A stretch of DNA of 64,000 nucleotides from a bacterium. GTDB taxonomy: Bacteria; Patescibacteriota; Minisyncoccia; Phycocordibacterales; Phycocordibacteraceae. This document shows positions 51,932-53,956 of the stretch, one piece after another (the stretch's first letter is position 1; every line of letters starts with the position of its first letter). The position numbers and the translations under genes are program-made. Location: positions 52,863 through 116,862 of the forward strand of contig JAHFML010000003.1 in NCBI GenBank assembly GCA_023269085.1, given 5' to 3'. A model generated the notes under the pieces. The model saw only the letters and a program-made list of their open reading frames with translations, was not told the DNA's origin and made no database searches.

Positions 51932-53956
51932 ATGAACGTCCCTGAAGAGGCGAAGGAGAGAGCGGCGAAGCTTCGCGAAGTGCTCGCGTACCACGCGCAC
52001 CGCTACTACACGCTCGACGCGCCCGAGATCTCTGACAGCGCGTATGACGCGCTGTATCACGAGCTACAAGCGCTCGAGGCGCAGTACCCCGAGCTTGCTC
52101 GTGAGGCGTCAGTGACGCGCCGCATCGTGGGAGAGGCGGTGCCCGAGCTCACGAAGGTGCGGCATGCGGCCGCACAGTGGTCATTCAACGATGCTTTTAC
52201 TGAAGAGGACATTCGCGCTTTTGATGAGCGCGTGCGCAAGGCGCTCCTCGCGGGTGGACACCTAGTGTCCACCCGCGAGGTGAGCTATGATCTTGAGTTG
52301 AAGATCGACGGCTTGAAGGTTGTGCTCACGTATGAAAAAGGTGTCTTGAAAACGGCCGCGACACGCGGCGACGGCGTCGTGGGCGAAGACGTCACGCATA
52401 ATATCCGCACGATCGCCGCGGTGCCCGCGCGCCTCGCGCGGCCGATTGACCTCATCGCCGAGGGTGAGGTATATCTCACGCGCTCGGGCTTCGCGAAGCT
52501 GAACGAGGCGCGCGAGAAGGCGGGCGAGCCCTTGTTCGCGAACCCGCGCAATGCGGCCGCGGGCTCTATCCGCCAGCTCGACCCGAGTGTCGCGGCGACT
52601 CGGCCGCTTGGTGTTTTCGTTTATGATGTCGCGGCGACAAGCGAGACTTTTCCAAAAACGCAAACCGAAGAGCTCGACTACTTGGCCACGCTCGGCTTGC
52701 CGGTGAACAGGGAGCATCGCCACGCCGCCACGCTCGACGAAATTTTTTCATATTGGCAGAAGTGGCAAGGTCAAGATGTGCGTGATAGCGTTGATTATCA
52801 GATCGATGGCGTGGTGCTCAAGGTCGAGTCGCGCGCCGCGCAAGGGGCGCTCGGCTACACCGGCAAGGCGCCGCGGTGGGGCATCGCCTACAAGTTCCCG
52901 CCTGAGCAGGTGCAGACGATCGTTGAGGACATCACGCTCCAAGTCGGCCGCACCGGCCGGCTCACGCCGGTCGCGCACCTGCGCCCGGTCGCGGTCGCGG
53001 GCACGACGGTCGCGCGCGCGACCTTGCATAACGAAGATTTCATACGCGAAAAGGATATTCGCATCGGCGATACGGTCATTTTACAAAAGGCAGGCGACAT
53101 CATCCCCGAGATCGTGGCGGTGGTGAAAGAGCTTCGACCAAAAGGCGCGCGGCAGTGGCACTTCCCAACGCATTCGCCCTTGTGCGGCAGTGATGGCGCG
53201 ATAGAACGTGTGGCGGGTGAGGCGGCGCATCGGTGCGTGAGCGCCGACTCATTCGACCAACAAATGCATAAGCTCATCCACTTCGCGGGGAAGCATGCAT
53301 TCGACATCGACGGTATGGGGCGCGAGACCGTGCGAGTGCTCATGGAGCACGATCTCATTGCCGACTTTGACGATATTTTTGAATTGACCAAAGACGAGCT
53401 TCTTGCGCTCGATGGGTTTGAAGAGACGAAGACGACGAATCTCATCGGGGCTATTCGTGCCGCGCGCACCGTATCGCTCGACCGACTCCTCATCGGCCTC
53501 TCGATCCCGCATGTTGGCGAAGAGACCGCCTTTCTCCTCGCGACCAACCTCGAGACGCTCGCGAAGCTTCGCAACGCGAGCGCTGACGCGCTCGCGCGTA
53601 TCGACGGCATCGGCCCCATCATCGGTGCCTCGGTGCATACGTGGTTTGGTAAAGTCGAAAATCAAGAATTGCTCTCACGACTCACGAAGCATCTCACGGT
53701 GCGCAAGGTCGCCGCGCCGGTTGGTGGCCCGCTCGCGGGGCAAACGGTCGTCATCACGGGCACCTTGCCGACCCTCTCGCGCGACGAGGCCGAGGCGATG
53801 GTGCGCACAGCGGGCGGCAAGACTGCCGCAAGCGTCTCGGCGAAGACCTCCTTTGTCATCGCGGGCGAAGCGGCGGGGAGCAAGCTCGCCCGCGCCGAAT
53901 CCCTCGGCATCCGCATTTTGAATGAGGCAGAGCTACTTGACAAAATAGATAGATAA
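51932..53956 (+). CDS. ligA: NAD-dependent DNA ligase
   Basis: KxDG adenylation motif (ELKIDGL), OB, Zn-finger Cys cluster, HhH and C-terminal BRCT. Confidence 0.95.
52251..52275 (+). repeat. 25-bp inverted-repeat element copy 4, inserted in-frame in ligA (inverse orientation, spacer cta)
   Basis: cgggtggacacctagtgtccacccg encodes AGGHLVSTR, an ~8-aa insertion relative to other LigA between the N-terminal domain and KxDG. Confidence 0.9.

Follow-up and report, generated by a model that had tools for sequence, protein, structure and literature searches.

An in-frame palindromic repeat in the DNA ligase gene ligA of a Patescibacteria genome, probably a translated REP-type hairpin of a Y1/HUH transposase-associated family

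As the gene for NAD-dependent DNA ligase, ligA, in a 64,000-nt stretch of a Patescibacteriota genome (assembly GCA_023269085.1, contig JAHFML010000003.1, positions 52,863 to 116,862; hereafter the window, to whose first letter coordinates refer) reads straight through a 25-nt palindrome without a stop, we were interested in how such a repeat came to lie inside the coding sequence of an essential enzyme. The gene (51932..53956, + strand) is an open reading frame (ORF) for 674 aa with the Pfam domains Nlig-Ia, DNA_ligase_aden, OB, HhH and BRCT and with matches to LigA entries of the PDB (1e-87). The palindrome in it is probably an intragenic, translated hairpin of the repetitive extragenic palindromic (REP) type, belonging to a Patescibacteria family associated with Y1/HUH transposases; we give this reading a probability of about 0.7.

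Comparison of orthologues and of the window with itself showed, at the level of sequence, that the ligA segment is an in-frame insertion and belongs to a repeat with further copies in the window. In most of the 120 closest LigA homologues (70-80% identical; source names Patescibacteria, Paceibacterota, Kaiserbacteria or Minisyncoccia) the linker from RVRK to YDLELKIDG has 6 residues (xSGxxP), compared with 14 in the window LigA. The window-type insert is missing from 118 of these 120 proteins and common only to one 80%-identical orthologue; it was found in none of 150 diverse LigA representatives (40-51% identity), and solved LigA structures (1B04, 4LH6/1TAE) have a gap of 8-9 residues exactly at LAGGHLVS. 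The alignment therefore bears out a first-pass annotation of the sequence, which had taken the segment for an insertion of about eight residues between the Ia domain and the KxDG motif; the gain of 8 aa (24 nt) stands, whereas the site lies inside the N-terminal adenylation domain. Similarly, the element size of 25 bp given there holds for the shared core, but the ligA palindrome is longer and the net gain over empty-site orthologues is 24 nt, not 25 nt (approximately 52241-52264, depending on the alignment). An AlphaFold2 (AF2) model of LigA (80 sequences; mean predicted local distance difference test score, pLDDT, of 92.7) keeps the fold, with the added residues located where helix 91-107 ends and within loop 108-118 (local pLDDT of 85-91). 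As modelled, the insertion site is a surface loop between the helix and the KxDG strand in the N-terminal part of the adenylation domain. Like intragenic REPs and the Rickettsia palindromic elements (RPEs), the ligA copy is thus in frame and stop-free by predicted translation, absent from orthologues and situated in a surface loop.

With up to three mismatches allowed, the palindrome CGGGTGGACAC-NNN-GTGTCCACCCG has four matches in the window, and 100 shuffles that preserved dinucleotides gave none, which confirms the ligA element and the three intergenic copies with a TAG loop that had been noticed before. In ligA the core (52251-52275, + strand, 11+3+11) reads CGGGTGGACAC CTA GTGTCCACCCG in frame and encodes (A)GGHLVST(R). 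It sits within an extended coding palindrome of 21+3+21 with 2 mismatches (52241-52285, + strand, 15 residues), perfect as 16+3+16 at 52246-52280, and so exceeds the shared core by 5-10 nt, unlike the intergenic copies. The other three of the four copies, to which no strand is assigned, are intergenic and 3-52 nt from gene ends. One (26493-26517, exact, loop TAG on the + strand) separates a divergent major facilitator superfamily gene (start 26456, - strand) from an orphan ORF (start 26547, + strand), and one (27229-27253) lies after the terminator of the orphan ORF and 3 nt past the stop of the RNase J gene rnj (27256..29184, - strand). The last (31280-31304, exact, loop TAG) lies between a hicB-like gene (31369..31542, - strand) and secG (30989..31228, - strand). 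The two mismatches of the copy at 27229-27253 are a compensating change of the outer pair from C-G to T-A that leaves the palindrome intact. When the four copies were aligned with their flanks, similarity was confined to the 23-25-nt core, and no target-site duplications were present at any of them. As a separate observation, CTAG is strongly depleted throughout the window (45 observed, about 239 expected from base composition), and four of the 45 occurrences are inside the palindrome copies.

The sole homologue with a window-type insert, P0002 (locus L007; 80% identity in protein and 77% in DNA), comes from a sample that also holds the species of the window. Its palindrome DNA is identical to that of the window except for a change of GCG...CGC to GTC...GAC, which is compensatory and keeps a perfect 16-bp stem. 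Where both genes encode the same residue, the codons are identical in 13 of 13 cases within the palindrome and in 61% of the other 513 (P ~0.002), and the 20-30 nt on each side of it show the divergence of the gene at large, so that a recent recombination patch does not account for the conservation. Comparison of the two loci thereby showed that the insertion is old and predates the split from the L007 orthologue. The nucleotides themselves are acted on, be it by selection, by homogenisation against other copies or by correction between the arms.

A link to a transposase came from related genomes. A DNA-only scan of GTDB with one genome per species, not including the source genome, with the pattern GGGTGGACAC-N3-GTGTCCACCC gave 6 loci, at least 4 of them from Patescibacteria and none with a TAG/CTA loop. 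At one of these, L006 (Saccharibacteria), a 235-aa ORF lies between two copies (81-105 and 830-866); it passes the gathering score of Pfam Y1_Tnp (IS200-like; 25 vs 23 bits), and among NCBIfam models it is matched best by that of the REP-associated tyrosine transposases (RAYTs), NF047646 (30.7 bits, under the 80-bit cut-off). Homologues detected by tblastn are bracketed in the same way: that of L002 (72% identity) by TGGACAC CGG GTGTCCA and TGTTGGACA TCCGG TGTCCAACA, that of L001 (54%) by hairpins of the type TTGCCGACAC TAA GTGTCGGCAA, and that of L008 (39%), a locus where LigA is a 77% relative of the window LigA and the Y1 gene directly follows ligA, by two copies of TTGTGCATAC CTG GTTTGCACAA. 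In the flanks of L006 and L002 the stem is again GGGTGGACAC / TGGACAC, the flanks of L001 and L008 have sister stems, and the L001 and L002 genes are each bracketed by GACAC-N3-GTGTC hairpins. All four proteins (214-235 aa) match PF01797 and conserve the HUH motif NH(L/F/I)H(I/L) (NHxHxxL) and the tyrosine motif LF(Q/E)xxY(K/R) (LFQGxYK); the hairpin-gene-hairpin units measure 769-786 bp and show no target-site duplications. RAYT genes are known to be flanked by their own REPs (Nunvar et al. 2010, PMC2817692), with REPINs described subsequently (Bertels & Rainey 2011, PMC3116915). As the same palindrome family brackets a Y1 gene in these relatives, the arrangement that defines REP/RAYT units (PMC2817692), the element of the window is taken to be a member of the family. 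A further scan of JGI metagenomes gave 29 loci, again none with a TAG/CTA loop and many GTAG/CTAC-flanked, with flanks unlike those of the window. There, in the JGI contigs L017-L045, the stem GGTGGACAC-N3-GTGTCCACC belongs to a REP-like hairpin with GTAG/CTAC tags that is present several times per sample (Ga0308169, Ga0308170); a long stop-to-stop open reading frame often ends at the TAG of such a tag. In view of the tags, the unlike flanks and the loops, we rejected these hairpins as the same element; they appear to be a different, classical REP family. Viral contigs had no matches for the 25-mer core and two double modules.

Within the window, a unit of 761 bp (26493-27253, + strand) consists of a 25-mer copy, the orphan ORF (26547-27155, 202 aa), a terminator (27172-27206) and a second copy, and thus resembles the Y1 units in layout and almost in size, its tie to the element being positional only. 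The orphan ORF is unrelated to Y1, with no family match and no profile similarity to the Y1 alignment, and was rejected as a hidden transposase on these grounds; its single-sequence AF2 model (pLDDT 56) was too poor for a fold search.

The loop that received the insertion in the window is occupied in other lineages as well. At least 22 of the 120 LigA homologues have palindrome-encoded inserts there, and the DNA of eleven ligA loci was obtained. Single modules were read at L048 (GGACAT CGT ATGTCC) and, with extended arms, at L008 (AAACTTGGACAT CCG ATGTCCAAGTTT), inverted doublets at L009 and L047 (GGACATCCGATGTCC CAG GGACATCGGATGTCC) and at L010 and L012 (GGACTTACGAAGTCC CAG or CCA GGACTTCGTAAGTCC), and a decayed copy at L014; L016 and L049 have an empty site with no insert. 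Modules of the clade include GGACAT-N3-ATGTCC and GGACTT-N3-AAGTCC, single or doubled, and every one is read in the frame GGA...TCC (codon boundaries after GGA and before TCC) with the ends GGAC...GTCC; all occurrences of GGAC-N7-GTCC in the examined loci are such palindromes. The 33-nt double module is identical in L009 and L047, whose LigA proteins are less than 79% identical and whose flanks are unrelated. A codon-aligned palindrome peptide test gave this loop as the only hot spot of LigA, with chance level elsewhere. Counts of the peptide GH.MS are 9 for LigA, 2 for GatA and 10 for RecG, all of them in insertion loops, and it is absent from the 150 diverse LigA proteins. Nucleation from an ancestral TCCGGA (Ser-Gly codons) was rejected, as empty sites use AGC GGC. 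By these sequence comparisons, the LigA loop was shown to be recurrently occupied across the clade.

Such recurrence could in principle reflect shared ancestry, if a single ancient insertion into the LigA loop of the clade ancestor had been inherited vertically with compensatory change, duplication and many losses. The common frame and ends of all LigA modules speak for this explanation, the window and L007 inserts clearly go back to one event, and palindromes are prone to precise deletion; the neighbour-joining tree of LigA is star-like and too weak for counts of gains and losses, so that nearest-neighbour identities were used instead. By that measure, the nearest relatives of insert-bearing proteins have an empty site at 83-87% identity, yet the same module recurs in sequences that are less than 79% identical. 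As the empty linker xSGxxP is also the outgroup state, at least ten exact reversions would be needed, and the sharing of modules with other genes and with intergenic DNA would be left unexplained. We consider a single ancient insertion unlikely.

This sharing was shown, again by sequence comparison, for module families in three further genes. The enolase gene of L001 contains in frame GAA GTG GGT GGA CAC CCG GTG TCC ACC CAC (EVGGHPVSTH), with the same stem and frame as the window ligA, and adjoining it a second module of the L008 type (CCTTGTGCATAC CAG GTATGCACAAGG); the loop that contains the two modules exceeds that of solved enolases by 17 residues. In gatA of L009, GGACGTAGTACGTCCTACATC A GATGTAGGACGTACTACGTCC (21+1+21) makes a 10-aa insert missing from five orthologues. 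Among 120 GatA homologues this loop holds ...GHRMST in two proteins, and other GatA loops carry inserts of the types RLPAG, FSAGG.SASGGD and PSTSLG(I/V)K. The window gatA itself has a +5-aa insert, LPDGS, near the N-terminus, which coincides with the hairpin GCCTGAC GGCA GTCAGGC (56952..56969, + strand); the short stem makes this the weaker evidence, and the peptide is related to RLPAG and RLPVGSQ inserts in other GatA proteins and one RecG. In recG of L016 (4530-4576) we found an in-frame inverted doublet, TGTGAAAGTCAGACTTACACAG TTG CTGTGTAAGTCTGACTTTCACA (22+3+22), whose unit TGTGAAAGTC-N-GACTTTCACA is also intergenic in the window (334-352 and 33674-33696) and in L016 (5067-5085). One of the window copies of this unit lies directly after groEL, ahead of the groEL terminator. 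At least 28 of 120 RecG homologues have inserts at one loop (residues ~155-165), many of them palindrome-compatible over 7-9 codon pairs: GGH(P/R)MS in 10 proteins, GGHPVS, which judging from the peptide would belong to the family of the window, and VKH...GMFNIP, common to RecG and the LigA protein P0105. Since the modules recur in identical or nearly identical form at sites that are not homologous, purely local mutation is ruled out as their source.

The conservation of the ligA copy raises a different question, namely whether the palindrome is a selected cis-acting site that is useful in ligA, either bound by a dimeric DNA-binding protein or serving at the RNA level as a hairpin for stabilisation or processing. 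Its nucleotides are conserved beyond neutral expectation, loop included, and the hairpin is very stable, with a predicted RNA fold of -37.3 kcal/mol (z -7.7). The intergenic copies have positions as in untranslated regions, with distances of 3 nt from the preceding rnj stop and of 37-52 nt to the starts that follow, the loop is CUA on the transcribed strand in at least three of the four copies, and REPs are known as mRNA stabilisers and protein-binding sites (PMC3733652). Nevertheless, the genes adjoining the copies have no common functional theme, most orthologous ligA genes do without the insert, unrelated palindromes occupy the same loop in other lineages, the copy in L014 is decaying, and a regulatory role would not need insertion into the coding loops of enolase, RecG and GatA. 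None of the copies has an Rfam match (Rfam matched the window only at 59030-59235, with a group I intron), and promoter and terminator consensus scans returned nothing specific, listing the copy at 26493 as a weak terminator-like site and not the others. A terminator or promoter role was rejected, since the true terminators of the window have A/T-flanked stems. We regard the selected site as improbable.

The ligA palindrome could also have arisen on the spot, if a template-switching polymerase folded back to copy the 21 nt next to the site and left a 3-nt loop, with no mobile element involved. This would account for the net 24 nt as one arm (21) and the loop (3) and for the extension of the palindrome by 5-10 nt past the core, which the intergenic copies do not have; the compensatory double change of L007 and the loop inversions (TAG/CTA, and CCG/CGG in doublets) are likewise template-switching signatures (PMC8604942, PMC8794818). 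Of the features by which such events are recognised, paired arm changes and loop inversion are seen, and one locally pre-existing arm is not demonstrable. A purely local origin does not explain why three unrelated intergenic sites have the 25-nt core in identical form, why its stem turns up in enolase and beside Y1 genes of other genomes, why ligA genes of different clades contain identical 33-nt modules between unrelated flanks, or why peptide modules recur between LigA, GatA and RecG, and this makes it very improbable. Template switching is best kept as a maintenance and extension step and not as the origin. An assembly or amplification artefact or a chance palindrome has a negligible likelihood, for although the genomes are metagenome-assembled and chimeric inverted repeats can arise in amplified libraries, no copies are expected by chance, the insert is in frame and recurs in a second species, the identical LigA protein of the window is found on three contigs from different samples, and other LigA modules are found on up to 9 independent contigs.

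The loop inversions also bear on the orientation of the ligA copy, from which the first-pass annotation had deduced selection for preservation of the reading frame. It is correct that the opposite orientation would be a stop, as the strand with the TAG loop reads GGH followed by a stop in the ligA frame. As the arms are perfectly complementary, however, the inverse orientation of the ligA copy amounts to three loop bases, four of the six combinations of frame and orientation are open, and the loop can flip by template switching as spacer inversion (PMC8604942). The deduction is therefore not upheld: in an essential gene with a flippable 3-nt loop, the open state reflects survivorship and calls for no special selective process. 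The age of the insertion, the differing palindromes in the same loop and the Y1/HUH link in related genomes had been missed at that stage.

Therefore, from the insertion in ligA, the identical intergenic cores, the bracketing of Y1 genes and the modules shared between genes, we return to the translated, Y1/HUH-associated REP-type hairpin as the probable nature of the ligA 25-mer. One copy would have landed, or been made, in frame where LigA has a permissive surface loop, just ahead of the KxDG strand, adding eight residues to the protein. By analogy with IS200/IS605 elements and RAYTs, the Y1 enzyme may copy the modules through single-stranded hairpin DNA, and loops that already hold a palindrome may be preferred sites of landing or replacement; preferred insertion into existing palindromes would explain hot spots, doublets and composite inserts. 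Template switching may then keep the arms perfect, extend them into the flanks, flip the loops and make inverted doublets (PMC8604942, PMC8794818), and in essential genes presumably only in-frame, stop-free and structurally harmless copies survive.

Several points weigh against this reading. The window has no Y1/RAYT homologue by tblastn or Pfam, so that bracketing of a Y1 gene by the same palindrome is seen in the related genomes and not in the window, and the Y1 assignment itself is marginal, the Pfam and NCBIfam scores being as given above and sequence and profile searches of the PDB with the Y1 protein giving no match. The GTAG/CGTC tetranucleotide at the foot of the hairpin is absent from the flanks of the four window copies, as is such a tag from the hairpins of L001, L002, L006 and L008, and the bracketing hairpins are direct, not inverted, in L006, L001, L008 and the 761-bp unit, judging from loops and an asymmetric mismatch. 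Only four copies were seen in 64 kb, where classical REPs number tens to hundreds per genome. The net gain of 24 nt as opposed to a 25-nt unit means that the borders of the insertion are not reconstructable, and the sharing of modules with GatA and RecG is mostly at the level of peptides, with DNA verified for L009 gatA and L016 recG. Finally, a selected function and homogenisation would account equally well for the strong conservation of nucleotides in the ligA copy.

More tentatively, and as a generalisation that is possible rather than probable, Paceibacteria-type Patescibacteria may harbour ultra-short (15-47 nt) untagged REP modules that are driven by a divergent Y1 enzyme, bracket its gene in direct orientation, and are more than tolerated in coding DNA, invading and displacing one another time and again at fixed landing loops of proteins of replication, repair and translation (LigA, RecG, GatA, enolase). 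If true, this would imply hairpin-targeted insertion into existing palindromes and essential proteins that carry a turnover of transposon-encoded peptide loops.

The family shares with REP/RAYT systems the short (20-40 nt), G+C-rich palindromes mostly near gene ends, complementary changes that keep palindromy, a Y1/HUH transposase-like gene between copies of its own palindrome, and inverted doublets that form longer hairpins. It differs from them in lacking a GTAG/GTGG head, in its perfect palindromes with 3-nt loops, in its direct brackets, in a longer Y1 protein (214-235 aa) below the NCBI RAYT cut-off, in four copies per 64 kb, in doublets of 33-47 nt instead of about 100 nt, and in its host, RAYTs having been described mainly from Proteobacteria. 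Translated GTAG/CGTC REPs inside ORFs, single or often as dimers, have been described from several phyla by Di Nocera et al. 2013 (PMC3733652), many of them in replication and repair genes (uvrA, uvrB, dnaE, recBCD) and one in a DNA ligase gene of Opitutus terrae; some were inserted within pre-existing small palindromes and some equated with RPEs of Rickettsia. The modules studied here are untagged, and the same protein loop (LigA, RecG, GatA) holds different ones across species; the 2013 survey contains no Patescibacteria and reports no such shared loop. From what is summarised of Ogata et al. 2000 in PMC10969869 and PMC3733652, RPEs have in common with our modules the in-frame palindromes in unrelated housekeeping genes at fold-compatible sites, the reduced host genome and the existence of several families both genic and intergenic. 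By the same accounts, elements of the RPE-1 type are about 100-150 bp (30-50 aa), whereas our modules are 15-47 nt (5-15 aa), and no sequence relation is expected.

In IS200/IS605 elements the Y1 gene lies between similar subterminal hairpins in direct orientation, no target duplication is made, and transposition follows a logic of single-stranded DNA. With units of about 770-790 bp, direct hairpins and no target duplication, the Y1 units resemble these elements (survey of HuH enzymes, PMC6006769) more than classical REPtrons, unlike them in that no conserved cleavage tetranucleotide adjoining the flanking hairpins was identified. Perfect coding arms, paired multi-nucleotide changes, spacer inversion and palindrome growth are also known from template-switch homogenisation (PMC8604942, PMC8794818) and from coding palindromes of Nematomorpha mitochondria (PMC6649704), which are local events on pre-existing sequence, unlike the identical modules seen here at unrelated loci and genomes. 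The copies do not qualify as miniature inverted-repeat transposable elements, having no target-site duplication, and the only DDE insertion sequence of the window, IS30-like, has unrelated 29-nt ends.

Other mobile and structured DNA is plentiful in the window. Two diversity-generating retroelement (DGR) cassettes (17755-20409 and 54000-56542) are 90-94% identical to one another and have variable/template repeats at 18475-18583 / 18863-18971 and 54600-54710 / 55024-55134 (82-88% identity), RVT_1 reverse transcriptases at 19285-20409 and 55607-56542 and a bAvd-like ORF at 55141-55509 (- strand). Each cassette begins with a hairpin CGCCACAGCAGAAA...TTTCTGCTGTGGCG, and as these hairpins are the DGRs' own and have no sequence in common with the 25-mer, an involvement of the DGRs was rejected although one of them adjoins ligA. 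This second cassette occupies the ligA-gatC spacer (53957-56892), which measures 13-24 nt in relatives, holds the Y1 unit and a 136-aa ORF in L008 (7311-8091) and is without mobile DNA in L007, L009, L010, L012, L014, L016, L047, L048 and L049; the spacer apparently serves mobile DNA as a place of insertion. The IS30-family element (22733-23790) encodes a 333-aa HTH_38 + DDE transposase (22778-23779) between 29-nt imperfect terminal inverted repeats, and with its unrelated ends this transposase was rejected as a partner of the 25-mer. The group I intron (RF00028, 56 bits) lies within an apparent split tRNA gene (59008-59297; 5' half GCGGGGTAGAGGAGAGGTACCTCGGGAGGCTT, 3' half ending ...GGTTCGATTCCAGGCCCCGCA), and ARAGORN calls no tRNA in the window. 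Perfect hairpins with a stem of at least 9 bp (for example 22371-22397, 24647-24672 and 56081-56103) number 33 in the whole window vs 2.0 in shuffles (approximately 16-fold excess); several are inside conserved coding regions without insertion (endonuclease III, MutY-like, DGR reverse transcriptase). Many are bidirectional terminators with AGA/CAGAG loops or reflect low complexity of Ala codons, and a mutational bias towards coding palindromes in general was set aside on this account. An intergenic hairpin with an 18-bp stem and CGTAG...CTACG ends (8449-8488) adjoins a 63-nt direct repeat (8513-8575 / 9276-9338, 86% identity) that extends over two gene starts near a HepT-like toxin gene.

A search of full-text literature on palindromic in-frame insertions or RAYTs in Patescibacteria, Parcubacteria or the Candidate Phyla Radiation found nothing relevant. 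REPs inside genes are uncommon but have been known since 2013, even in a DNA ligase gene, and in this respect the gain is incremental and not conceptual. What appears to be new are untagged, very short and perfect REPs in a new phylum, their divergent Y1 partner and the recurrent occupation of one loop across a clade. The Y1 protein of L006 and L002 and the GGGTGGACAC-N3-GTGTCCACCC hairpin form a testable candidate pair of enzyme and substrate. The finding would be useful for the study of hairpin target choice, for tracing protein-length variation to selfish DNA, and for avoiding the misreading of indels in phylogenetic markers and structure predictions. It demonstrates that different palindromic modules can enter the same loop of an essential enzyme again and again within a clade, and extends the biology of REPs and Y1 transposases to the Candidate Phyla Radiation, in whose tiny genomes scarce intergenic room may force repeats into protein loops.

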